Virus record (IMG/VR): IMGVR_UViG_2718217867_000004
Span: 1 to 40,589 of that record
DNA: 40,589 bases
Strand: one strand, 5' to 3'
Origin: a virus
Taxonomy: Duplodnaviria > Heunggongvirae > Uroviricota > Caudoviricetes
Part shown: one piece after another, positions 1,604-23,399 of the stretch
How the letters are laid out: the number at the start of each line of letters is the position of its first letter
Position numbering within the stretch: the first letter of the stretch is position 1
Program-made: the position numbers and the translations under genes
Notes under the pieces: model-generated
What the model was told of the DNA's origin: nothing
The model's database searches: none
What the model saw: the letters and a program-made list of their open reading frames with translations, nothing else

Positions 1604-2185
1604 TCACACCGTCCCCGTGGTTGCCTGACTTGTCACCGTGCTGCCGCCGCTCTCCACACCGCTGACCGGGTGGGTGTGGATGTTGTATGCCTCCCGCAGC
1701 GCCTTCAGCGTGGTGCTGTTGGTTTCACAGTTGTCCGTGATATCCCCCGTCACCTTCAGCGACGGCGTTTCAAGGGTGACCCCGTCCGTCGCCGTTACCT
1801 TCAGCGTGGTGGCCCTGTTCACCGTCACCGGCTGCCCGGAGGCCTCCACCACAATCCCGTCCTCACCCAGACGGACGAACTGCCCCCACTGGTTGTAGAC
1901 CACCACCTCACCGCTGCTCAGACCGTTAATCCGGTATGACTGATGGCCGGACGCCACCACCACCGCGCTGCTGCGGTTACCGGCAAGACTCATCACCACC
2001 ACATCCGTTCCGTCGGGCAGCACCGAGGAAAAACCAAACTGCTGAAGAACCGGCGTGTCGCTGCGTACCTCTGACGGACTCTGCACCTGCACGGTCTGCA
2101 CCACACCGCTGTCATCACCCGCCGTCACGCGCCCCACGCTCAGCAGTGACACCAGACGGCGAAAAAGCACCTGTACAGGATTCAT
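1604..2185 (-). CDS. Baseplate spike / assembly protein V (Mu gp45-like)
   Basis: 193 aa, N-terminal OB-fold-like region and Gly/Val/Thr-rich C-terminus typical of gpV spike proteins; gene order. Confidence 0.75.
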   Translation of the reverse strand: MNPVQVLFRRLVSLLSVGRVTAGDDSGVVQTVQVQSPSEVRSDTPVLQQFGFSSVLPDGTDVVVMSLAGNRSSAVVVASGHQSYRINGLSSGEVVVYNQWGQFVRLGEDGIVVEASGQPVTVNRATTLKVTATDGVTLETPSLKVTGDITDNCETNSTTLKALREAYNIHTHPVSGVESGGSTVTSQATTGTV

Positions 2186-3270
2186 GACGACACATCCCTT
2201 CCGGCCACGCCGGAATAAAAACGGTACGGCTGCACGCTGAACGCCTCCGGCGGCATCAGGACCAGCGATGCCGTGGTCCCCGTCTCATCGTCACGGCTGA
2301 ACGTCACCTCAGAGACCAGCCAGTTCAGACTGTCCGCCCCCAGTGCCGGTATGCTCACCGGCACAAAGGTGTTGGGCTGCCACAGCGTTCCCGCACTGTC
2401 ACGCCAGCTGTCCACCGTGACGTTCACTGCCATGGAACGCCCGTAGCGCCGGTTCATTTCCCAGTTCACCGCCTGCTGTGCACACCCCGTCGTCATCAGC
2501 GTGCTCTCCACTATCGTCACGTGACGACGGGTGCGCATACCGGCGGCTTCCGGGTCACGGGCCGTCGCCAGCAGCACGCTGTCATAACCGGATGCCGGTG
2601 ACAGCTCGCTGAGGCTGTTCACCGACACCGACAGCCCGGTGTATTCCGAAAACCGTTCATTCATGCTTCGTGTGTACTCCGCCTTCTGCAGGTTCACCCC
2701 CTGCGTCACCCCGCTGGCTGCCGACGCCGTTCCTGCCCGCGTCAGGAACAGGCTGCCATCCGGCAGGTCGTAATACAGCAGCCCCTCATACCGGCAGATG
2801 CGGTCAATGATTTGCTGCGACGACTCCCCCCAGTTGATGACAAAATCCGGCACCGTGGTGAAACTGTCGATGTCTGTCGTCACCGTGATGCCGTACACCG
2901 ACGCCAGTTTTCTGATGATGGCCAGCGCATCGCCGCCCTTTATCATGTTGTTCTCCCACCAGGCGGCGCAGTCCACAAGGTCCTGGCACATTCCCCTGCC
3001 CGTCACCCGGATATCATGCGACTGCGGCGTCAGGGTGTTCACCCACTGGTCGACATAGCCGGTCATCACCCGGTCATCACCAATGGATATCGTGCAGTTG
3101 CTCCCCGGCGGGGCCAGCTGAAAGCCCTCCTGCGGATACCAGTCCGTCAGCGAAAGCTCAAAATCCGACGGCAGGCGCTCAATACCCCGCGTCACCCGGA
3201 TATGGCTCCATCCCGACATGACGGTGTTGTTCACCTTCAGCGTCAGGGTGTCATCTGTGGTTGTACTCAT
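2182..3270 (-). CDS. Baseplate hub / tail protein (Mu gp44-like, phage late control D family)
   Basis: 362 aa ORF translationally overlapping its neighbours, in the position of Mu P (gp44). Confidence 0.7.
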   Translation of the reverse strand: MSTTTDDTLTLKVNNTVMSGWSHIRVTRGIERLPSDFELSLTDWYPQEGFQLAPPGSNCTISIGDDRVMTGYVDQWVNTLTPQSHDIRVTGRGMCQDLVDCAAWWENNMIKGGDALAIIRKLASVYGITVTTDIDSFTTVPDFVINWGESSQQIIDRICRYEGLLYYDLPDGSLFLTRAGTASAASGVTQGVNLQKAEYTRSMNERFSEYTGLSVSVNSLSELSPASGYDSVLLATARDPEAAGMRTRRHVTIVESTLMTTGCAQQAVNWEMNRRYGRSMAVNVTVDSWRDSAGTLWQPNTFVPVSIPALGADSLNWLVSEVTFSRDDETGTTASLVLMPPEAFSVQPYRFYSGVAGRDVSS

Positions 3271-4691
3271 GTGTTTCTCGCTGTGAAGGAAAGCGGCATG
3301 AACGCCGGATGGACGGGAGAGACCGCCTGTACCAGTTCGTCCGCACGCGAGGCGTCCTGATACAGCCGGTTTGCCAGCGCCAGCGACGGCTGCGGTGAGC
3401 GGCTGGTCACCTTCATCACGTCCTGTTGTGACAGATAATTCGTCTGCCAGTGGGTGACAAACTGCGTGTACTGCGCATTCAGCGCGTCATAACTGTCGTC
3501 ATCCGTACGGTCAGCCAGTAACAGCAGGACGGTTTCCGTCACCGTGCGGGCCTTCCGCATCACCAACACCGCGTCGTCGTGACCACGGGGGGAATACTGC
3601 ATCAGCCGCCACAGCATCGCTCCGGCCCCCAGTGTGCGGATAAGGGCCTGCACCGCCGCAGAGATGGCATTTGCCGCCTCCCCTTCGTAATACGTCCCGT
3701 CTTCCGCCGACGCAATCTCAGCCATGACGCGGATTTTCTCCGTGTCGCTGCCCGTGGCCTCCGCCAGAGTGATAATGACCGCCTGTATCGCGGACACGGC
3801 ACCGGACACGGATGTGATATCCTCCAGCACCGCTGTCGCCGACTCCGCCGCCGACCGGTCCTGCACGGAGCAGGCCTGAATGGTTTCCAGGATACTGTCA
3901 TCATCCGCATCCGTGGTGGCAAGCCACGTTGCAAGCGACGAGGCCGTGCTGCCCGACGGCGTATCACTGCCCCGACAGTAACGCCCGTAACTGTCAGGCG
4001 AATACAGGGATGACACCGTGCTGGTCATGCTGGTCACCGACGTCACCGCCCGCGAAAATATCGTCTTCCACGCGCTCACCGTGCTCTTTATCGTTTTTAC
4101 CGCGCCGGTGACACTGTTCATCTCACCGGTAATCGCCGCCAGCGTCACGGTGGCCGTTGTGGTCAGCGTCTGATACCACGTCTCCGATGACGTGGAGGTT
4201 GTCCCCGTCACCAGTGAAAACGCTTTTTCCCCTGACTCAATGACGGTCAGCGTGAACGAAAACACACGCCCGGACTCCACGCCCTCTTCAATACGCAGAC
4301 CTCCGTCCGGGACATACACCGTCATCTCACCCAGCGTCGGATGGACCAGCAGACCTCCGCCGGATGTTTCACAGGCCGCCACCAGGGCATCCCGCTGACT
4401 GAACACATCCCCCGCGCTGTACACCAGACTGTCCTGTATCAGGAACCCGCGCAGTGTGAACTTCCGGGCGCTGCGCCCCAGGTCTTCCACCCAGACCGTA
4501 TCGCGGTACGGGTATTCATGCACCGCCACCCGGCGACCATATACCCCCTCTCCGGCAATCACGCCAAACGGCACGCCACAAAATGACGCCTGGTGAATAT
4601 GCGACTGCCACTCCCACCCGCCGGAGGAAGACAGCCCCAGGGCGGATGACACCGCGTCTGTGATAATGCCCATCTTCTGCTCCTCACACAT
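3267..4691 (-). CDS. DNA circulation protein-like tail protein (Mu gp43-like)
   Basis: 474 aa ORF directly downstream of the tape measure gene; Ser/Thr-rich central region; gene order matches Mu N. Confidence 0.65.
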   Translation of the reverse strand: MCEEQKMGIITDAVSSALGLSSSGGWEWQSHIHQASFCGVPFGVIAGEGVYGRRVAVHEYPYRDTVWVEDLGRSARKFTLRGFLIQDSLVYSAGDVFSQRDALVAACETSGGGLLVHPTLGEMTVYVPDGGLRIEEGVESGRVFSFTLTVIESGEKAFSLVTGTTSTSSETWYQTLTTTATVTLAAITGEMNSVTGAVKTIKSTVSAWKTIFSRAVTSVTSMTSTVSSLYSPDSYGRYCRGSDTPSGSTASSLATWLATTDADDDSILETIQACSVQDRSAAESATAVLEDITSVSGAVSAIQAVIITLAEATGSDTEKIRVMAEIASAEDGTYYEGEAANAISAAVQALIRTLGAGAMLWRLMQYSPRGHDDAVLVMRKARTVTETVLLLLADRTDDDSYDALNAQYTQFVTHWQTNYLSQQDVMKVTSRSPQPSLALANRLYQDASRADELVQAVSPVHPAFMPLSFTARNT

Positions 4692-7463: not shown

Positions 7464-8966
7464 TTAATCGCTGCGGCTGTTCAGCCTGAACTGGTTCAGC
7501 ACCGCAAAGATGCGTAACTGGTTCATCAGGCGGCCCGGCCACACCACGTTCACGCGGTTCGGGTTGTCACTGTCACGCTCAACCACCAGTTGCTCCGCAA
7601 ACGCATCCGCATTCTGCACGTAGCCGTTGCTCGCCAGCGTCCGGAACCGGGCGATCAGCTCAGCACGAATAATCGCAGGTGTGGCTATCGCAGCCCCTGC
7701 CGGAATATTCGCGTCGTCATCTGCCAGCTTCATCCGTCCAAACTTCGAGGTCACCTGTGTGCGCATGTCGCGGCATACATACATCAGCGTGTACATCGTC
7801 TCGATCTGCAGGTAGCTGTCGTCTGTCGCACCGTATCGGTTGGTCTGGTACGTGGTGATGGTATTCTCAAGCGTCACCGTATCGTCGGCCGACACCGTGA
7901 AGGTTGAGATACCGCTGTAGAGAAGCGTGTTCCGCTCCGTCAGGGTGAAACGGCTTGCCAGCGGCGGGGCCAGCACACCGGATACCGGCAGCGTCTGGGT
8001 GGGTCTCGCCGGATCGTTGCGGACCGACTGCGCCAGCGCCCCCACCATCGCGGCGGCATAGTCATATGAGGTGTTCGGACCGTCATACACTCCCCAGAGT
8101 GTCATGTGCTGGTCGTTGCGGCGCTCTCCCTTGTCTGCCAGCTCGCCATAGCTGCCGTTTACCGCCGTGAAGGCATGGCCGTAAATTTGTTTGTCCCACG
8201 CCCAGCGACCTTCGTCATCCGACAGAAAATCCTTCATGTCGTTGAGCGATGTGGTGTCGGAATACGCCAGGACAATGAAATCAAACGTGCGGTCGCCCAG
8301 AGAGGCGAGCGCATCCGCAAGGTCCGGCGCACCCTCCCCGCCACTCATCGCCGTGATGGTCAGCGTCAGGCCGTCCGGGGTGGACTCGCCGCCGGATGAC
8401 CCGAGATAGTTCAGCCGGATATCAATGGTGTTTCCCGTCTCACCGGCATTTCTGGCCGTAAGCTCAACGGTCGTGCCATCACGGGGCACGGAGGCCGTCA
8501 CCGGCAGCCCGGAGGTGGCGTTGATTCTGTCTGCCAGCAGACTGGCAATCTCTGCCCGCGTGTACGCTGGCTTCACCGTCAGGCGCACGCGGGTGCCTGC
8601 GATGTACAGGTAAATAACGCCGGATGCCGTCGGCACACTGTCAACAGATATACTGCCTGTGGCCGTCGTCATGCTGCTGTCATCATCTGCCAGCGGCAGC
8701 AGCCAGGTCTCTCCGTAGCTGTCATTTTTAAGGTAGGCCATCAGCATGGTATGCAGCATGGAGCCTTCCCCGCACAGCCCGGCAGCCATGGAGGCCGATG
8801 AACAGCGGTATGCCGTCCCTGCCGTGGCCGTTCCCGCAGCCGTCATCTGACCAATCAGCAGGGTGCGCTGCGTCTCCGTGGCGCTGTTCGCCATTGAGTT
8901 GTCCACTTCAACATAGAACAGTGGCACACGGAGATTTGACGGGATATTGCTGAACGATACCGTCAT
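7464..8966 (-). CDS. Tail sheath protein
   Basis: 500 aa ORF with a sequence typical of contractile tail sheath proteins; followed by tube and chaperone genes. Confidence 0.9.
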   Translation of the reverse strand: MTVSFSNIPSNLRVPLFYVEVDNSMANSATETQRTLLIGQMTAAGTATAGTAYRCSSASMAAGLCGEGSMLHTMLMAYLKNDSYGETWLLPLADDDSSMTTATGSISVDSVPTASGVIYLYIAGTRVRLTVKPAYTRAEIASLLADRINATSGLPVTASVPRDGTTVELTARNAGETGNTIDIRLNYLGSSGGESTPDGLTLTITAMSGGEGAPDLADALASLGDRTFDFIVLAYSDTTSLNDMKDFLSDDEGRWAWDKQIYGHAFTAVNGSYGELADKGERRNDQHMTLWGVYDGPNTSYDYAAAMVGALAQSVRNDPARPTQTLPVSGVLAPPLASRFTLTERNTLLYSGISTFTVSADDTVTLENTITTYQTNRYGATDDSYLQIETMYTLMYVCRDMRTQVTSKFGRMKLADDDANIPAGAAIATPAIIRAELIARFRTLASNGYVQNADAFAEQLVVERDSDNPNRVNVVWPGRLMNQLRIFAVLNQFRLNSRSD

Positions 8967-9199
8967 GCATCACCCCCTTTCGCCGTGCTGGCAGACGTGC
9001 TGCCTGTTGCTGTCGTGGACGCGGTCACTTTGCCGGTGGCTGCCGTGGTGGCCCTGTCAGCCAGTACCACATCCCCCTGCTTCAGGCGGCGTCGCCAGAA
9101 CAAATCACGATCCGGCACCTCCGCCCCCTCATCAGGCAGCAGACGTGACGGGTCGCCGGGGTAGCGCACCCTGCGCCCCGGTACAGGTTTCACAAACAT
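8963..9199 (-). CDS. Small virion-associated protein (DUF2635-like), hypothetical
   Basis: Start placed at an ATG with an AGGAG SD 7 nt upstream, after the stop of the upstream gene; Thr/Ala-rich C-terminus. Confidence 0.45.
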   Translation of the reverse strand: MFVKPVPGRRVRYPGDPSRLLPDEGAEVPDRDLFWRRRLKQGDVVLADRATTAATGKVTASTTATGSTSASTAKGGDA

Positions 9200-9212
9200 G
9201 GAATTTCTCCTG

Positions 9213-9776
9213 TCAGGTTTCACTGCCGGTTTCATCACCGGCAGACAAATCAAAATGCAGGCGGAATGACGGATACACGCCGCGCACGTTCACCTCACGC
9301 AGCGGGACAATCTCAGACGGGAAGAAATCCTCCGGCCCCTGGTAGTACTCCAGATCCAGCTCCAGCACCACAATACCGGTGTGCGCTTCACCGTCGGAAT
9401 CCACGCCGATATGCGACCGGATCCTGCTGATTTGCTGAAACTTCATGCGGACGTCCGGATTACCGATGACGGCACGCTCTATCGCCTCCTTCATCGCCTC
9501 CGCCTCTTCCCACGCCACGCCTGCTGCATTTTCCGTCTCGTCCCCGCTGTCATACGCCAGCACGCGACCGTCGATACGCAGGGTCGTGGTGGTGGTGAAC
9601 TGCGGCACATGCCGCCCCTGTGACACCTTGTGTTCGGACTGCACGGACACAATGATGAGCGGGTACTGGTCCGGCATCACCGGCAGGGTGCGCGGGGAAT
9701 ACACCCGACCGCCAAAACCGGAACAGTCGTTCAGTGCCCGGGTGACAATTTTTCTGGCTTCTGCGGTATTCATCAC
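9213..9776 (-). CDS. Tail completion / neck protein (Mu gp37-like), hypothetical
   Basis: 187 aa ORF between head-completion genes and the tail sheath; function assigned from position only. Confidence 0.5.
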   Translation of the reverse strand: MMNTAEARKIVTRALNDCSGFGGRVYSPRTLPVMPDQYPLIIVSVQSEHKVSQGRHVPQFTTTTTLRIDGRVLAYDSGDETENAAGVAWEEAEAMKEAIERAVIGNPDVRMKFQQISRIRSHIGVDSDGEAHTGIVVLELDLEYYQGPEDFFPSEIVPLREVNVRGVYPSFRLHFDLSAGDETGSET

Positions 9777-14864: not shown

Positions 14865-15116
14865 TCAGTAACGCACGCTCAGAGACCTTCTCGTCCTTAT
14901 CCCCAGCGCCCGCTGGAGCGTCGCGATCAGCGCCAGCAAATCAGCACTGCTGGCCTGTGAATAAGTCACGGTGCGCGTGCCGTCTCCCTGTGCATAGGAG
15001 AAACTCACGCCACGCCGCCCTGAAAGCAGCTCAATATAGGCCGCCTGAGCTTCATTCAGTGCCGTCTTCAGTTGTTCTTTTGACATTCCGGCAAACACGC
15101 CGGGGGTATTCATCAT
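14865..15116 (-). CDS. Head-tail joining protein gpW-like
   Basis: 83 aa ORF between terminase large subunit and portal, the conserved gpW position. Confidence 0.7.
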   Translation of the reverse strand: MMNTPGVFAGMSKEQLKTALNEAQAAYIELLSGRRGVSFSYAQGDGTRTVTYSQASSADLLALIATLQRALGIRTRRSLSVRY

Positions 15117-17092
15117 CGTCTCACTCCTGCAAGCCTCATATGCAGCGGTATTTTCTTACGGGGTATCTCCGGTGCTTTTGCGCCCGGCATACTTAAACTG
15201 ATTTTTTCTTCCGGCTGCGCGGGAGGCGGCTCCAGGAATGACAGATCCTGCGCCGCCCGTTCAGCCAGACGGTTCAGTTTCAGACCGTGATGCAGCAGCC
15301 CCTTCAGGGCCGCGTAACCGTACACCATGCAGTCCAGCGCCTCATTCGCCCGTCCGGCAGACAGCTCCCAGACACGGTACACCTGCCCGCCGTTCTCCTT
15401 ACGCACCAGACGCTCAGAGAGCAGCTGACTGAAATAATGCAAATCCAGAAACGACGGAAAATGGATACAGCCTGCGGCAGGCGCGCCTGCCGGATCCGGC
15501 TCAATATGGAGCCGGTGCCTGATGTCGTCCTTCGCGGAGTTCACCCCCAGAATGACGGGGCGAAAGGATTTCCGGTTGCGGGAAGAAACACTGCGCGTCG
15601 GCCAGACGGGATTACGTTTGCCGCCAGTGGCGGACTCACCTTTTGTCGCCCAGATACGACGCCCGATACGCGCCTTCGAGAACTCATACACTTTGTTGGT
15701 GTGATGACCGCCCGAGTCATGGCAGACCGCCGAGAGCGTCAGCCCGAAACCGTCAGCCCGCCGCCAGACCTGCTTCAGATACGCATCAAGGCGCTCCCAC
15801 GGCTCTTCTGTTTCAAGGTCACCAAAAATCACGTCATGCGCAATCACCCAGCATTCTTCGTTCATGCCCCAGCCGAGAACGGTGATTTCGAAGCGGTCAT
15901 CCTGCGTATCCACCCCGGCGGTCAGCAGGAGCACGCCATACGGCACCTCCGCTCCCCAGACCTCGACACGGGCAATCAGCCGCTGTTCACTCATCGCAAA
16001 CTCGCCTGCATCCTCGTAAGGCTCGCCCAGCGTGGTATTGATGAATGTCTGGCGCATCAGCGGATCGTCCTTCACCCTCAGCCATTCGGCGACCAGATTC
16101 GGCCAGGAGGCATTTGAGTTCGGGCTGTAGCCCGTCCAGATATGAAAACCGGCATGCCCCCTGAATGGTGCACCGGCACGCCATTCGCCTTTTGCCAGCA
16201 TCCCGGGCAGTTCACTGTGCACAATCACACAGCCGTGGTGACGGCACAGATAGTAAGCGGTCTCCGGCAGCCCGTTACCTTCGCTGTCCTTTTCCCACTT
16301 GATGCCGTAAGGGGTGCTTTTGCTGCCCCACTCCAGCACCTGATATTCACCGCAGTGAGGACAGGGCACGAAGTAGCGGCGCTGATCGCTTTCCAGCCAG
16401 GCTTTTTCAATACGGCTCACGCCTTTCACGGTTGGCGTTGAGCCGAGAACAATCTTGCGGTTCCAGAAGGTTTCGGAACGTTTTGTTCCCAGCGCAATCT
16501 GATCCCCTTCGGACCCTGCGCCCCCTGCCGGATACCCGTCCACCTCATCAAAAAGGATGATGCGGCATGTGATACGGCGAAAACCGCCGGGGGAGTTGGC
16601 CCCGACCAGCGTGAGGTTTGCGCCGTTGGAAAAGGTTTTGCGAAGAATGGTCTGGTTGCTGTTTTTTGCCTTCGGGTCGCCGCTGATGGCTGCCAGCACC
16701 GGCGTGTCGCGCAACATCGGGGCAATTTCGATTTTACTGTAGTCTTCGGCATCCTCCACCCTCGGCTGAACCACCAGGATGGAGGACGGATCATGTGCCA
16801 GGTAATAGCCCACCACATGGTCAAGAATTTTCGTGTATCCCACACGGGCTGATTTCATCACAGACACATACGTGACTGACGGGTCGGTGATGGCATCCAT
16901 TATGCCGTCCTGATAGGGATAGGAGCGGAATTTCCCCGTCTGGGCACTGGTCTCACGGGACAGTACAGCGAAGGTGTTGGCCCACTGGCTTAAGGATAAT
17001 GGCGGCGGAGGCGCAAGATAACGCGGACACGAAAGCAGCGCCTCCTCAAACTGTATCTCCGTGGGTTTCGCGCCTGTCAAATGCAAGTTCAT
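15113..17092 (-). CDS. Terminase large subunit (lambda gpA family)
   Basis: 659 aa; overall sequence typical of gpA-type terminases; overlaps the small subunit gene. Confidence 0.95.
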   Translation of the reverse strand: MNLHLTGAKPTEIQFEEALLSCPRYLAPPPPLSLSQWANTFAVLSRETSAQTGKFRSYPYQDGIMDAITDPSVTYVSVMKSARVGYTKILDHVVGYYLAHDPSSILVVQPRVEDAEDYSKIEIAPMLRDTPVLAAISGDPKAKNSNQTILRKTFSNGANLTLVGANSPGGFRRITCRIILFDEVDGYPAGGAGSEGDQIALGTKRSETFWNRKIVLGSTPTVKGVSRIEKAWLESDQRRYFVPCPHCGEYQVLEWGSKSTPYGIKWEKDSEGNGLPETAYYLCRHHGCVIVHSELPGMLAKGEWRAGAPFRGHAGFHIWTGYSPNSNASWPNLVAEWLRVKDDPLMRQTFINTTLGEPYEDAGEFAMSEQRLIARVEVWGAEVPYGVLLLTAGVDTQDDRFEITVLGWGMNEECWVIAHDVIFGDLETEEPWERLDAYLKQVWRRADGFGLTLSAVCHDSGGHHTNKVYEFSKARIGRRIWATKGESATGGKRNPVWPTRSVSSRNRKSFRPVILGVNSAKDDIRHRLHIEPDPAGAPAAGCIHFPSFLDLHYFSQLLSERLVRKENGGQVYRVWELSAGRANEALDCMVYGYAALKGLLHHGLKLNRLAERAAQDLSFLEPPPAQPEEKISLSMPGAKAPEIPRKKIPLHMRLAGVRR

Positions 17093-17663
17093 TCAGCGCC
17101 TCGTAAATCAGTTCCTGCAATGCCGCCGTGAATCCCTGATCGTCTGTCATCCCCGCCAGCGCCCGCAGACGGGGACCATGTTCCGGCGCAAGGGCAACAA
17201 GGCGCGTCCTCACCCGGGTATACTCCGCCCCGACCCGCTCAATGATGGGTTTCCAGGGAAGCAGTGTTCCTTTCTTTTCGTCATACTCGAGTTTTGCCAG
17301 CAGCGCGAAGTAGTTCTCTTTCATGGTTCTGGCTTCATCGAGCGTCATCATGGCTCCGTGGCTGGCAATGAACTGTTCGACCCGTGCTTCTTTCGATACA
17401 TCAGAGGAGTCATCGTACAGGGCAATGCTGTTACCTTCGTTGTTACCCGGAGTGTTACCTTCGGATGTTACCCTGTTACCTAAAGTGTTACCTTTTTGCT
17501 CATTTTTTATTCGGGTAACAGTTTTCCGGTAACGCCGGATCCGCTCGTTTGAGGCATCAACATCGATGTCCTCACCGTCCAGAACCAGCCAGCCACGGGC
17601 CTTCCACGCCGTTACCGTCTTGCGACTGACACCGTGAAGTTTTGCGAATTCCGCCTGATTCAT
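17046..17663 (-). CDS. Terminase small subunit (Nu1-like, N-terminal HTH)
   Basis: 205 aa starting MNQAEFAKLHGVSRKTVTAWKARGW (HTH comparable to lambda Nu1); contains a GNT-type peptide repeat encoded by GGTAACA nucleotide repeats. Confidence 0.8.
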   Translation of the reverse strand: MNQAEFAKLHGVSRKTVTAWKARGWLVLDGEDIDVDASNERIRRYRKTVTRIKNEQKGNTLGNRVTSEGNTPGNNEGNSIALYDDSSDVSKEARVEQFIASHGAMMTLDEARTMKENYFALLAKLEYDEKKGTLLPWKPIIERVGAEYTRVRTRLVALAPEHGPRLRALAGMTDDQGFTAALQELIYEALNELAFDRRETHGDTV

Positions 17664-17690
17664 CTGTTACCCTCTGTTACCTGTTACCCA
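17664..17690 (-). repeat. Three tandem GGTAACAG repeats immediately upstream of the Nu1 start (candidate cosB/terminase-binding sites)
   Basis: Minus strand reads GGGTAACAGGTAACAGAGGGTAACAG-ATG; six more copies of GGTAACA(N) lie inside Nu1 at about 17440-17500. Confidence 0.5.
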
Positions 17691-17766
17691 AATTTCAAAA
17701 TTTTATAGCTAGCGAAACACCGCGCTCGCGCAATGCCCGTGCAATAAGGTCTCCAGGAAGGACCCG

Positions 17767-17886
17767 TTACCCTGCCAGGCGACAGTGTCGACACCCGCTT
17801 GCGGTTTCAAAAATCTCAAGATAACGATAAATCACAATGCCATCACAAAACCCTGTGATGATTTTTTCACGACTGATGGTTTTCAT
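17767..17886 (-). CDS. Small hypothetical protein (39 aa)
   Basis: ATG with a GAGGAA SD 6 nt upstream, directly after the stop of the upstream 67-aa gene; not in the ORF track (below the size cutoff). Confidence 0.25.
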   Translation of the reverse strand: MKTISREKIITGFCDGIVIYRYLEIFETASGCRHCRLAG

Positions 17887-17894
17887 ATATTTCC

Positions 17895-18098
17895 TCACGT
17901 TTCATCAGACAATAACGCAACCAGATGGCAGGTCGCCTCCTTATTGAGAGGGAACACGAGCGTTTCACCTCCTGTGCGGTGGATATACAATGTCCTGCCC
18001 CCGGATTCATCTCTTTCAACATCAAGATATGAAACAACGGGGCGGCATATCGCTATGCCGCGTTCGCTAATGTGAGTTTTGTTTATGAGGTTATTCAT
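17895..18098 (-). CDS. Hypothetical protein (67 aa)
   Basis: ORF whose ATG overlaps the stop of the upstream ORF (ATGA). Confidence 0.4.
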   Translation of the reverse strand: MNNLINKTHISERGIAICRPVVSYLDVERDESGGRTLYIHRTGGETLVFPLNKEATCHLVALLSDET

Positions 18099-18427
18099 GG
18101 GAATACTCTCCGAATTAAATACACTTCTGGAAAAGATACCACTCTGAAAAAAACTTCAGTCAGTCCCACAGGAAATAGAAGATTTGAAGCGAAGAGTTGC
18201 TGAACTGGAATCGAACCATTGTTCTGCAACCAGCGCACAATTCTGTCCCAAATGCCAAAAAGCGTCTTTTCAGCTCGACAGAACTGAAAATGATCCAACG
18301 TTTGGAGTATTAGGCCTTCAGCGGGACATTTATGTTTGCAGAGAGTGTGGTTACTCTCGCCATGAATCACGTTAATAAAAACGCTGCTGGCACGTTCTTT
18401 CTTCAGGGCAACAATGCCCTGCATCAC
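18095..18427 (-). CDS. Hypothetical protein (110 aa)
   Basis: ATGA overlaps at both ends with flanking same-strand genes support translation; composition is unremarkable; an antisense zinc-ribbon-like ORF (18184-18375, +) competes for this locus. Confidence 0.35.
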   Translation of the reverse strand: MMQGIVALKKERASSVFINVIHGESNHTLCKHKCPAEGLILQTLDHFQFCRAEKTLFGIWDRIVRWLQNNGSIPVQQLFASNLLFPVGLTEVFFRVVSFPEVYLIRRVFP

Positions 18428-19089
18428 TTCGCCGTCTTTAAAGCCTGTTCAAGCGCCACACTCAGCTCCGTCTTCATGAGACGCGATGCCATGTTGTGTG
18501 CCAGCGCCTGATAACCCAGTACCGGCGTGACCGGCAGTGCATCACCAAAACGTATCAACAGCTTTGGTGAGCGGCTTTTTTTGCGGGGAGCGCGTGTGCC
18601 ATTGGGGGAGCGTTTTCTCCGCTTCCTGGTTTTTGCCACTTTTTTCGCTTTCTTACGCTGCCAGACGCCACCAACATCCTCACCATAGTTGTTCGTCACC
18701 TTACCGATGAACACATCCGGTCTGGCCTTCAGCTGTTGCAGTTTTGCCTTTGGCAGGTTGCCGTATTTGTTCAGCCGGATATTTTTCGGGTTCAGTACAG
18801 CTTTCTGCCCCTCACCGAGATAATGCAGCCCGCCCACCTCAAAGGGTTCAAGGTAAGGCACGGCGGTATCCATGATGAACACCCGACCGGTCAGATTGTC
18901 CCTTGTTGCCCCTTTTGAGCGCACCGAGTTCACGGTGAACGGCGTCGGGTTATCCAGCTTCCGGCGAAGGTTTTCTTTCTCTGCCGCTTCAATTTTTCTC
19001 ACCGTGGCAGTGATGGCGCGCGCAGTGGCAAAACGCACCTGCTTCTGCATTCCCAGAAGCTGTCTGTGAAGGTCGTTAAGGTCAGCCAT
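18424..19089 (-). CDS. Basic hypothetical protein (about 221 aa)
   Basis: Start placed at MADLNDL (AGGTGG SD); Lys/Arg-rich segment KKAKKVAKTRKRRKRSPNGTRAPRKKSRSPK suggests nucleic-acid binding; no recognisable catalytic motif. Confidence 0.5.
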   Translation of the reverse strand: MADLNDLHRQLLGMQKQVRFATARAITATVRKIEAAEKENLRRKLDNPTPFTVNSVRSKGATRDNLTGRVFIMDTAVPYLEPFEVGGLHYLGEGQKAVLNPKNIRLNKYGNLPKAKLQQLKARPDVFIGKVTNNYGEDVGGVWQRKKAKKVAKTRKRRKRSPNGTRAPRKKSRSPKLLIRFGDALPVTPVLGYQALAHNMASRLMKTELSVALEQALKTAK

Positions 19090-19148
19090 ATTCCACCTTC
19101 TCATGCTGCATTATCGCAGCCCCTCACTGAAGGGCTGCTGTAATGCTG

Positions 19149-19448
19149 TTACTCAGTAACTACCGCACCTTCCGGTAATTCCATACCGGCAAATACCGGA
19201 CAACCAGGATGACGCTTATCTTCTGTTGCTTCCAGCATTGACTCACCAAACCACTCCGTCGTGGCGCGACCATCAGCTGCTTTGTAGTGGATCAGGTACT
19301 GGTTTTCGCCATCCGCATACTGCGCGCGGGCTTTAATCTCACCCCATTCATCACTGATGCGCATCTCCACCAGTTGAGACAACTCAAACTTAAACGGAGC
19401 AGCATCAGCACCAATTACAAACGGTTTGTTTTCTGTTTTTTCCATCAT
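19149..19448 (-). CDS. Hypothetical protein (about 100 aa)
   Basis: Start at MMEKTENK with a CAGGAG SD; acidic soluble protein, no recognisable motif. Confidence 0.45.
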   Translation of the reverse strand: MMEKTENKPFVIGADAAPFKFELSQLVEMRISDEWGEIKARAQYADGENQYLIHYKAADGRATTEWFGESMLEATEDKRHPGCPVFAGMELPEGAVVTE

Positions 19449-19618
19449 CGTCTCCTGATATCTAAGCCCGTCGCCGCACCGGATACTGATCAACATTTGA
19501 GTATTCGCGGCGACATAAAGAATTTATTTTATTGAATAACCACAAACTCAGAATTTCATGCTTTCCGGTCGCTGACGCACCCTTCATTTTCAGCAAAATG
19601 TTCTGCTCTTACAGGCAA

Positions 19619-19801
19619 TCAGTTCTGCAGACACTGCCGAACATCGTCGACAATTTCACAGACCTGAGAAGCTGTATCGAAAAGCTGGCGCGCTTTATCC
19701 AGGCTGACGCATCCCACCAGGAAAAAAGGCACCAGTATCGCTACCAGTGCCCATTTCACCGCCGCTCGCGGCATTCTGTGTGTCCAGTGTTTTCTGCTCA
19801 T
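19619..19801 (-). CDS. Putative lipoprotein (spanin-like / Bor-like)
   Basis: Start at MSRKHW (AGGTGG SD); signal peptide with lipobox LVGC; directly downstream of the endolysin. Confidence 0.4.
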   Translation of the reverse strand: MSRKHWTHRMPRAAVKWALVAILVPFFLVGCVSLDKARQLFDTASQVCEIVDDVRQCLQN

Positions 19802-19815
19802 AACCCACCTGGTTA

Positions 19816-20199
19816 TCAGCGTTTCAACTGAAAATGAGGTCCGTCTTTCAGTGTTTTCCAGTCGCCGCCCCATTCGATGGCAGTTCCCAGCTCTGCGGCA
19901 GCCTGCTTAAATGCCTGCGCGATTTTCTCGTACAGAGGCCAGTCCCATGACACCTGGCTGCCAATGTAGGCCACAACATCCACCGCATCACCGGTCAGGT
20001 GGCGGCTGTTCATGGTCTGGCTTTTTCCTTCCGCGACCAGTTGTTTCTGGCGCTCTTTCGTGCGCAGACCTTCCGTAATACCAAAATCAACCTCCGTCAG
20101 TTCAAGGGCACGGCGAACTACAGCAACCAGCTGTGGTCTGACACCCTCCAGATTTTTCTCGCTCCGGCGGCTGAATCTGAATTTACCCGACATATTCAC
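19816..20199 (-). CDS. Endolysin, peptidase M15 family (L-alanyl-D-glutamate endopeptidase-like)
   Basis: 127 aa; SRHLTGDAVD and WGGDW motifs typical of zinc-dependent M15 cell-wall peptidases; sits in the lysis cassette. Confidence 0.85.
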   Translation of the reverse strand: MNMSGKFRFSRRSEKNLEGVRPQLVAVVRRALELTEVDFGITEGLRTKERQKQLVAEGKSQTMNSRHLTGDAVDVVAYIGSQVSWDWPLYEKIAQAFKQAAAELGTAIEWGGDWKTLKDGPHFQLKR

Positions 20200-22032: not shown

Positions 22033-22107
<75 letters not shown>

Positions 22108-22110
22108 CAT

Positions 22111-22186
<76 letters not shown>

Positions 22187-22352
22187 CATTGGTTCCTCAG
22201 GTGTGGATGAGATGCCCGGATACATAAATTACCCTCCCTTGGAACCGACGAAGAATAATAATGAATTCCGCTCCTGTTTCAATACAAACAATGTCAGGTA
22301 TTTAAAACATAATTATACAATATTATAAAAATTAAAAAGTTCGCAAAAAAAG

Positions 22353-23399
22353 TTAACTATTGTTTCTTACTTCATCAACCGTTTGATTAAACCTATCCGT
22401 TTCCAGCTCTACACCAATAGCTCTACGTTCCAGATAGAGCGCAGCCTTTATAGTCGCCCCCGATCCCATAAAAAAGTCTGCAACCAGTTCCCCCGGACGA
22501 CTGCTGGCTGTAATTATCTGCCGCAACATATCTGCTGGCTTCTCACACGGATGTTTACCCGGATAATACTGCACAGGTTTGTGCGTCCAGACATCCGTAT
22601 AAGGAACGGCAGCTGATACGGAAAAATAACGCCGCAAAGATTTATACTCTTCCAGCAGGCTGACATATTGCCGGTTCAGTTCGCTGTATGTGCTGACCAG
22701 ATGGTGGTGTGGCTTTTCCAGTTCTCCGCGTTGATGTTTTTCTGCTGCAACACGCGCAAACAACGCCTGCAGCTTTCTGTAATCAGCTTCGTTCGGTAAC
22801 TGCCACTGGCTGGCACCAAACCAGTGCGAAGCCATGTTTTTCTTTCCGGTGGCTTCCGCTATCTGTTTCGGCGTTATCCCCAGTGATTCACGCGCATCAC
22901 GAAAGTAAGAAATCAGCGGAGCCATGACATGCTGTTTAAGCTCGCGCCCCTTTGCCACATAGCCATCATTTTTTGGCCGATATGGCCCCTGGTAATGTTC
23001 AGCAAACAGTATGTGCTCTGTTGCCGGGAAATATGCCCTCAGGCTTTCCTTCCTGCACCCGTTCCAGCGTCCGGACGGCTTCGCCCAGATGATATGGTTA
23101 AGCACGTTGAAATGTTCACGCAACATGATCTCGATATCAGATGCCAGACGATGCCCACAGAACAGATAAAGACTTCCGGCGGGCTTCAGTACCCGCCAGA
23201 ACTGCGCCAGACACTGGTCCAGCCACTTCAGGTAATCATCGTCACCCTTCCACTGGTTATCCCAGCCCTCGGGCTTCACTTTAAAGTATGGCGGGTCTGT
23301 GACTATCAAATCGACAGAGTTTTCCGGTAAGGTCTGGATAAATCCCAGGCAATCAGCGTTGATTAACTCACAACTGGATATTTTTACAGTGTTAACCAT
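22353..23399 (-). CDS. DNA methyltransferase (N6-adenine/N4-cytosine, beta class), orphan
   Basis: 348 aa; N-terminal DPPY motif (VTDPPYF) and C-terminal FxGxG motif (FFMGSGAT); no adjacent restriction endonuclease gene. Confidence 0.9.
   Translation of the reverse strand: MVNTVKISSCELINADCLGFIQTLPENSVDLIVTDPPYFKVKPEGWDNQWKGDDDYLKWLDQCLAQFWRVLKPAGSLYLFCGHRLASDIEIMLREHFNVLNHIIWAKPSGRWNGCRKESLRAYFPATEHILFAEHYQGPYRPKNDGYVAKGRELKQHVMAPLISYFRDARESLGITPKQIAEATGKKNMASHWFGASQWQLPNEADYRKLQALFARVAAEKHQRGELEKPHHHLVSTYSELNRQYVSLLEEYKSLRRYFSVSAAVPYTDVWTHKPVQYYPGKHPCEKPADMLRQIITASSRPGELVADFFMGSGATIKAALYLERRAIGVELETDRFNQTVDEVRNNS

Follow-up and report, generated by a model that had tools for sequence, protein, structure and literature searches.

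A putative tail completion protein gene next to cos and a mobile two-gene insertion at the end of the late genes of an Escherichia coli prophage

Which genes lie between the lysis genes and the cos site of the prophage in IMG/VR record IMGVR_UViG_2718217867_000004, and do they belong together? The whole stretch of 40,589 nucleotides that was analysed, hereafter called the window, is an Escherichia coli prophage whose late genes are all on the minus strand. In that direction the lysis genes, namely two holins, an M15 endolysin and a lipoprotein of 60 amino acids (aa) (20907-19619), are followed by a region with five open reading frames (ORFs), ORF1 to ORF5 (19496-17767), and then by cos, a Nu1-like small terminase subunit gene (terS, 17663-17046) and a lambda gpA-like large subunit gene (terL). 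Farther on come gpW, the portal, the protease, the decoration protein, the major capsid protein and an FII-like head-closure protein, and the order ends in a Mu-like contractile tail comprising sheath, tube, chaperone and tape measure. Judged by this gene content, the prophage combines a lambda-like head and packaging module with a Mu-like contractile tail.

An earlier note on this DNA had regarded the five ORFs as one translationally coupled cassette of uncharacterised cargo genes, possibly a transcription unit of its own, with host-interaction or superinfection-exclusion functions. The present analysis established the gene content, the boundaries of an insertion, the homologies, a predicted fold, the synteny and, by homology, the position of cos. 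The explanation that we consider probable as a whole is that the region is the final stretch of the late operon before cos and consists of three independently inherited pieces. The first would be ORF1, a small acidic protein carried along with a phiP27-type lysis module. The second would be ORF2, a divergent tail completion protein (TCP) gene that has gone from the tail module and now lies immediately upstream of cos and the terminase genes. The third, an insertion, would have brought in a mobile two-gene module made up of ORF4 on the late strand and a zinc-ribbon gene head-to-head with it, the latter knocked out here; ORF3 and ORF5 would not be genes.

A mosaic between the lysis genes and cos

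The region studied is identical to IMG/VR contig 3300011840_000036, and the prophages of four complete E. coli genomes are 99.4-99.5% identical to the window over it. Two near-identical prophages, those of strains 'numer 3' (L010) and 2015C-4136CT1 (L011), have flanks that are 95-99% identical to the window, and pairwise alignment with them reveals an insertion of 646 bp between the ORF2 stop codon and the cosQ-like sequence (17773-18418). It replaces 15 bp present in L010 and L011, in which terS starts only 129 bp after the ORF2 stop codon. The GC content of the insertion is 44%, versus 53-54% in its flanks, and it thereby combines the atypical composition and the presence/absence polymorphism by which morons and lysogenic conversion genes are recognised. 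Searched as DNA against the phage collection, the insertion gave no match. ORF3, ORF4 and ORF5 all lie within it, apart from the first codons of ORF3 and the last two codons of ORF5, which come from the flanks.

ORF3 (18095-18427, minus strand, 110 aa) had been counted among the genes in the earlier note, which had overlooked the real gene on the opposite strand, the zinc-ribbon gene (18097-18375, plus strand). The insertion junction 18418/18419 falls inside ORF3, and no homologues were found for it in family and database searches. In every divergent zinc-ribbon locus the antisense frame equivalent to ORF3 contains 4-6 stop codons, and it is open only in the lineage of the window. Because of these stops in all divergent homologous loci, ORF3 is not a gene, but an antisense shadow of the zinc-ribbon gene. 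ORF5 (17767-17898, minus strand; 43 aa, or 39 aa from an ATG at 17886) is likewise unsupported as a gene. Identical copies were its only matches, no equivalent follows the ORF4 homologues, and the frame extends across a hairpin (17840-17861) at the insertion's end and continues into a cos-flanking site. With no conservation found for either, both are best read as non-genes. This is relevant to annotation, as in one genome (E. coli DS26-1, L001) PGAP has ORF3, the antisense artefact, as a gene, and in the two genomes checked it leaves out both real genes, ORF4 and the zinc-ribbon gene.

A second boundary lies between ORF1 and ORF2. phiP27 and about 370 other E. coli prophages resemble the window over the lysis genes and ORF1, and the similarity ends, at about window position 19100-19130, in a GC-rich intergenic hairpin (GCAGCCC...GGGCTGC, 19116-19141); from ORF2 onward there is a separate module, and the hairpin forms the junction of the lysis/ORF1 module and the ORF2/packaging module. 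The five ORFs straddle three modules with differing distributions, so the region is a mosaic. A 46-bp stretch around the hairpin is 94% identical to Salmonella phage Fels-1.

Among relatives, 125 to about 2,500 bp separate the ORF2 homologue from cos or terS. This gap is a hot spot for cargo, since depending on the relative it holds the zinc-ribbon/ORF4 pair, a HicAB pair or a secreted protein, and no cargo in L010 and L011. The HicA/HicB-like toxin-antitoxin pair was seen in L111 (5023-5712), and an opposite-strand protein of 178 aa with a signal peptide in L142 (4650-5186), which represents a large locus group with an 817-bp gap.

These results bear directly on the idea of one coupled cargo cassette. 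The five minus-strand ORFs are indeed where they had been reported, between the lysis genes and cos (cosN being at 17725-17736), and the start/stop overlaps that gave the impression of coupling are real (GTGA/TGATG for ORF2/ORF3, ATGA for ORF3/ORF4, GTGA for ORF4/ORF5). A cargo function also agrees with the hot spot between ORF2 and cos and with the absence of any known function for ORF1, ORF4 and the zinc-ribbon protein. The single five-gene cassette nevertheless fails, because ORF3 to ORF5 sit in an insertion missing from near-identical prophages. The indel polymorphism of a mosaic of three modules with differing distributions and the antisense test on ORF3, which is open in the window lineage only, largely refute it already; ORF5 is without homologue, ORF2 is a protein of a structural class (see below), and PADLOC yielded generic zinc-ribbon noise only. 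Nor does the transcriptional part of the idea hold. The imperfect inverted repeat between the lysis lipoprotein gene and ORF1 (19470-19514; 8-bp arms, GTCGCCGC at 19470-19477 and GCGGCGAC at 19507-19514, and a 5-bp inner stem) is present, as the earlier note had said, and the terminator and promoter scan reports nothing there. It lacks a U-run and cannot be recognised as a terminator, and no promoter-like site adjoins it on the minus strand; it therefore does not mark a separate transcription unit. The scan found no promoter or terminator that would delimit the region. We regard the one-cassette explanation as highly improbable.

The observation of the earlier note is thus partly confirmed and its interpretation partly supported. 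ORF1 is still an uncharacterised conserved protein and ORF4 a real gene without known function, while the description as uncharacterised genes does not apply to ORF2, ORF3 and ORF5. As for cargo, the gap between ORF2 and cos is a hot spot and the insertion an uncharacterised mobile two-gene module; the reading as uncharacterised cargo is valid for the insertion only.

ORF2 and the tail completion proteins

ORF2 (18424-19089, minus strand; open frame 18424-19104, true start 19089) specifies a basic protein of 221 aa (isoelectric point, pI, 10.9), which we file as a divergent TCP (also called Neck1) resembling gpZ of lambda. It matches phrog_1924 ('minor tail protein') over its full length (E 4.3e-51, residues 6-226 against positions 6-237 of the 237 in the profile), and all 57 diverse ORF2 relatives match this family too. 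The name of phrog_1924 is an annotation only, and no experimental characterisation of the family was found in the literature searched. ORF2 also matches phrog_27 ('tail completion or Neck1') weakly (E 1e-3), as do 16 of the 57 relatives (best E 3e-6); ten match phrog_4688 ('minor tail protein') and nine match PF06763 (Minor_tail_Z), the latter all below threshold (best E 4.7e-4). The family is large: a word-indexed search gave 1,277 clusters, and clustering at 50% left 2,907 representatives. When its profile was compared by hhalign with the sequence of lambda gpZ, the prototype TCP (PF06763), the two aligned weakly and colinearly from end to end (E 6.7e-4, residues 13-221 against 6-188). gpZ has 192 aa versus 221; like ORF2 it has long helices at the N- and C-termini, a beta domain and, internally, a stretch rich in Arg and Lys.

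The structure of ORF2 was predicted with AF2 from a diverse alignment, A2 (pLDDT 91, pTM 0.79). A2 had replaced a shallow alignment, A1, of relatives with at least 59% identity, which gave a pLDDT of 59 and meaningless Foldseek matches, and with which hhalign found nothing against gpZ, HK97 gp10 or a 187-aa neck protein of the window; a scan of viral contigs with lambda gpZ for profile building was useless, as it returned only copies 99-100% identical to lambda. In the model a long N-terminal helix (4-44) is followed by a beta domain, a basic loop predicted with lower confidence and a long C-terminal helix (193-219). These are the elements of the TCP fold, which opens with a long, bent helix at the N-terminus and closes with another long helix at the C-terminus; between the two lies a loop or a beta element, which in gpZ is a beta domain (PMC11661146). 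The loop (approximately residues 145-176) consists of Lys plus Arg to 53%, and its length varies from 7 to 46 residues across the family. What had been described as a Lys/Arg-rich tail of the protein is consequently an internal loop, after which a C-terminal segment of 45 residues with the long helix follows.

The highest-probability Foldseek match to the model in PDB is 9mu2_P (probability 0.57, TM 0.53 on the target, root-mean-square deviation 3.6 Å over 83 columns). We take it to be 80alpha gp51, because its 109 residues agree with the part of gp51 that was modelled (7-115) in the SaPI1/80alpha neck. gp51 is the first TCP to be solved, and its architecture is like that of ORF2 and is also predicted for gpZ, with an extra beta domain (PMC11661146). 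In BFVD there were significant matches, and among the models matched many are labelled HK97-gp10, Neck Ne1, tail component or minor tail protein. ORF2 thus has its fold class in common with 80alpha gp51 (9mu2 chain P), SPP1 gp16.1 and the HK97 gp10 family (Neck1/Ne1, phrog_27), but is about twice as long as these and has the added beta domain and basic loop. The earlier note had seen no recognisable function in ORF2 and had named a match to structural proteins as a finding that would speak against a cargo cassette; such a match is what ORF2 gives, to the known structural class of tail completion/Neck1 proteins distantly related to gpZ.

The position of the gene is constant among relatives. terS and terL follow the ORF2 relative on the same strand in 73 of 80 IMG/VR loci, and in six of the seven exceptions the locus is cut by the contig end. 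The same arrangement is found in Serratia BZS1, Citrobacter phiNP, Acetobacter phiAP1, the Rhodobacter RcCronus group and Dinoroseobacter R4C, in all of which the ORF2 homologue is the last gene before the genome end; RcCronus gp44, a member of phrog_1924, is one such gene in front of the cos end. Lambda and the phage of the window both have a Nu1/A terminase of the lambda type and 12-nt cos ends. They differ in gene position, gpZ being flanked by FII and U in the lambda tail module and ORF2 being the final conserved gene ahead of cos, and in that the tail of the window phage is Mu-like and contractile. RcCronus, with 13-nt cohesive ends, belongs to the siphoviruses (PMC8601537) and BZS1 to the myoviruses; the ORF2 gene therefore goes with the lambda-type packaging module and not with the type of tail.

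Several observations weigh against the assignment of ORF2 to the TCPs. Unlike gpZ, ORF2 stays below the Pfam threshold, and it reaches none in NCBIfam; by the curated sequence-profile criterion, which asks for PF06763 or the HK97-gp10 family above threshold, it would not be classed as a TCP. The hhalign probability for gpZ is 27%, with a single-sequence template, which means weak similarity, and the comparison of the ORF2 family with HK97 gp10 detected none. PDB sequence searches with ORF2 profiles gave no significant match, no PDB match to the model in Foldseek had E < 1e-3, and the top BFVD matches are unnamed. The gene is also outside the tail module, away from the usual place of a TCP gene, which has the head-closure gene on one side and the tail-terminator or major tail gene on the other. 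In the window this slot, between the FII-like and sheath genes, is occupied by an uncharacterised protein of 187 aa (9213-9776, minus strand; phrog_6774), which could itself be the TCP and would leave ORF2 redundant or otherwise employed. This neck protein gave no alignment with the ORF2 family. Its homologues in the phage collection are in BZS1, phiNP and phiAP1 only, and all three have an ORF2 homologue as well. A second uncharacterised neck-region protein, of 96 aa (8963-9253, minus strand; DUF2635), is also encoded between the FII-like and sheath genes. In favour of the assignment, no Ne1 gene is annotated in RcCronus from the head-closure gene to the tail gene, and because this canonical position is without one, the ORF2 homologue of RcCronus may fill the Ne1 role.

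The linkage to cos could also be explained if ORF2 were not a virion protein, but a DNA-binding accessory of cos and terminase whose basic loop would be used in the initiation or termination of packaging. Inheritance of the gene with cos, terS and terL would follow from such a function, and so would its strict adjacency to cos and terS across alpha-, beta- and gammaproteobacterial hosts and across tail types; the high pI, the composition of the loop and the location outside the tail module are in keeping with it. We consider a packaging factor of this kind unlikely. The predicted fold and the profile links favour a TCP/Neck1 protein, the basic loop is highly variable in length, and the ORF2 homologue may serve as Ne1 in RcCronus. 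Moreover, TCPs themselves contact the DNA end (PMC11661146), so that the linkage to cos fits a TCP equally well.

TCPs are common in long-tailed phages, but it took the 2024 structure of the 80alpha neck to settle where they are and what they do. They are located in or near the neck, and the TCP of 80alpha touches both the DNA end and the N-termini of the tape-measure protein; gpZ was proposed to bind one DNA end and to let the DNA enter the tail, and the old proposal of end binding was never confirmed (PMC11784142, PMC11661146). If ORF2 is a TCP, then by analogy with the 80alpha structure and the genetics of lambda gpZ one or a few copies would be placed inside the neck lumen of the finished tail. 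The two long helices and the beta domain would touch the tape-measure protein, the basic loop would touch the last-packaged (right, cos) end of the DNA, and ORF2 might thereby position or plug the DNA for ejection. From the published contact of the 80alpha TCP with the DNA end, and the one proposed for gpZ, we infer that ORF2 would act at the cos-proximal end, and the linkage of its gene to cos may reflect such a role. The inheritance of a large gpZ-like family (about 2,900 representatives at 50% clustering) with cos and a lambda-type terminase, in siphoviruses as well as myoviruses, offers comparative support for a function specific to a DNA end, and so strict a linkage could mean that TCPs recognise the specific right cohesive end. 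BZS1, phiNP and RcCronus are tractable phages in which the DNA-end role of the ORF2 family may be addressed. A displaced tail completion gene linked to cos is one point of note in this region; the interlocked ORF4/zinc-ribbon module is the other.

The zinc-ribbon gene and ORF4

The zinc-ribbon gene comprises 92 codons, for an N-terminal coiled coil and a CPxC...CxxC motif, and is interrupted by a TGA (18145-18147) at codon 17, the position of an invariant Trp. Its homologues, from prophages of Morganella, Photorhabdus, Xenorhabdus, Salmonella, Burkholderia, Achromobacter and others, have 90-92 aa and 34-63% identity, and the length is about 92 aa in all 76 clusters. The four Cys and Trp17 are invariant in an alignment of five sequences and kept in all intact homologues read. 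The gene in the window is probably a pseudogene. TGG17 is changed to TGA in most near-identical copies; in one of them (L186, 3094-3096) TGG17 is intact and CGA32 has become TGA, and the gene has therefore been knocked out twice independently. The two nonsense changes are among about eight variable sites in the 279 bp of the near-identical copies. Read-through of the TGA was rejected as the main reading, as the sister copy restores TGG17 and yet has a TGA at codon 32. We also rejected an HNH endonuclease, suggested by the name of phrog_8828, since the zinc-ribbon sequences match only the first 64-68 positions of this 205-aa profile, over the coiled coil and the zinc ribbon (E 2.7e-7 to 2.3e-8), and its nuclease part is wholly absent.

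ORF4 (17895-18098, minus strand, 67 aa) is a real gene for a soluble protein, co-oriented with late transcription. Three further divergent lineages have homologues of 64-65 aa with 34-41% identity, each head-to-head with a zinc-ribbon gene; the pair lies there between the Q antiterminator and holin genes or beside the endolysin gene. The start codons of the two genes overlap (CATG), always within ...TCATGGG... in the pairs, and the ribosome-binding site of each is embedded in the first codons of the other. ORF4 is intact in the IMG/VR copies; the DS26-1 copy has frameshifts both in it and before the start of ORF1 (3899-4100 and 5151-5503 of L001). In high-GC phages, namely Burkholderia-type viral contigs (L201-L205, about 2100-3270), the zinc-ribbon gene has no ORF4 partner and is divergent from terS-terL; it thus again adjoins packaging genes in distant hosts.

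No family match was obtained for ORF4 in Pfam or PHROG, nor for its homologues in Pfam, and PADLOC gave only a weak HamC/DUF3223 match (E 0.006). For the zinc-ribbon protein there was only generic noise in PADLOC (a Cas12a C-terminal zinc ribbon, E 6e-5), and Pfam gave only sub-threshold zinc-ribbon models. Similarity of the pair to known toxin, antitoxin or defence families was not found. The module is like lambda bor in that its zinc-ribbon gene opposes late transcription in the interval from the lysis genes to cos, in DNA of low GC content that is present in some prophages and absent from others. Unlike bor and other morons, to which it has no sequence relation, it is a head-to-head pair with overlapping starts, and its opposite-strand gene is a pseudogene.

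The interlocking of the two genes raises the question of whether they form an active two-component switch or a toxin-antidote-like module with mutually exclusive expression, in which a zinc-ribbon protein harmful to E. coli lysogens would be selected against. Head-to-head order, overlapping starts and embedded ribosome-binding sites have been kept in four divergent enterobacterial lineages and in several contexts, the two independent nonsense mutations stand beside an intact ORF4 in the IMG/VR copies, and the segment is low in GC and polymorphic for presence. The resemblance to known families that such a module might have is lacking, however, and the zinc-ribbon gene occurs alone in the Burkholderia-type phages. 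The frameshifted ORF4 of DS26-1 would fit decay of the whole module, and two nonsense mutations are too few as proof of selection. Scans of the relatives gave no consistent promoter-like sites; in the window two weak plus-strand sites lie upstream of the zinc-ribbon start, a count not above that in shuffled sequence. A strong terminator follows the zinc-ribbon homologue in L191, and none follows it in the window. On balance we hold an active switch to be rather doubtful. Still somewhat less probable is the specific proposal that the pair is a previously undescribed mobile module whose antisense 5' ends flip expression between the zinc-ribbon gene in the lysogen and ORF4 late in the lytic cycle. 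If true, the two nonsense mutations would reflect counter-selection of a harmful or exclusion-type zinc-ribbon protein.

ORF1, neighbouring genes and the cos region

ORF1 (19149-19445, minus strand, 98 aa) is acidic (pI 4.6) and soluble, without a transmembrane segment. The frame is open over 19149-19496, and the likely true start at 19445 was set from the homologues and from the frameshift of DS26-1 upstream of residue 19. ORF1 matches phrog_1935 (E 1e-58), to which no function is assigned, and is 94% identical to L33 of phiP27; Pfam, NCBIfam, PADLOC and PDB, including a PDB search with an ORF1 profile, gave no match. The family is narrow (76 clusters), and those clusters with source names come from E. 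coli, Shigella or Salmonella. As judged from these homologues, ORF1 is a real conserved protein that moves with the phiP27-type lysis module.

Its place next to the lysis genes led us to consider a lysis accessory function. No PHROG of the lysis category is matched, the highest Kyte-Doolittle value in a 19-residue window is 0.82, and the N-terminal part contains no Cys-containing lipobox. A spanin (i- or o-), an antiholin and a holin-type protein were rejected, as ORF1 has neither an N-terminal transmembrane segment nor a lipobox.

The 60-aa lipoprotein encoded after the endolysin gene (19619-19801, minus strand; phrog_7528) has a signal peptide with an LVGC lipobox, and its mature part of about 30 aa contains three Cys. 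It resembles an o-spanin; no i-spanin gene (Rz-like, with an N-terminal transmembrane segment) was seen embedded in or beside it. Between the lysis genes and a DNA methyltransferase gene (22353-23399) are genes for tRNA-Gly(TCC) and tRNA-Thr(TGT) (22034-22187, minus strand). This is the slot in which phiP27 has tRNA-Ile, tRNA-Arg and the Stx2e genes; the toxin genes are absent from it in the window. An Rfam scan of 17400-20100 gave no match.

The cos region (17664-17771, minus strand) contains a cosQ-like sequence, cosN, an AT-rich IHF-like stretch and tandem sites at the start of terS. The 109 bp upstream of terS are colinear with lambda cosQ-cosN-I1, and cosN, GCATTGCGCGAG, lies by homology at 17725-17736, just downstream of the insertion. 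The 12-nt overhang of BZS1, GCATTGCGCGCC, was determined experimentally (PMC7556043), and the GenBank record of BZS1 terminates exactly at the corresponding ...CACGG. Inside ORF4, AGGAGGCGACCT (approximately 17932-17943, minus strand) matches the lambda cohesive end GGGCGGCGACCT at 10 of 12 positions. It was judged a chance match and rejected as cos, because the sequence at 17664-17771 is colinear with lambda cosQ-cosN-I1 and matches the BZS1 overhang. Beyond cos, the Nu1-like terS (17046-17663, minus strand) matches phrog_57 (E 1e-27), and terL, of the lambda gpA type (15113-17092, minus strand), corresponds to the PGAP annotation of L001.

A short motif recurs around cos and terS. GGTAACRG occurs 13 times in the window versus 1.8 times expected, and eight copies are clustered in 17428-17771. 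Three of these are tandem GGTAACAG sites (17664-17688) that abut the terS start, one, GGTAACGG, stands beside the cosQ-like sequence ACGGGTCCTTCC (17756-17771), and four lie inside the 5' part of terS. From this placement, the copies are likely candidates for TerS recognition sites, analogous to the R sites of cosB.

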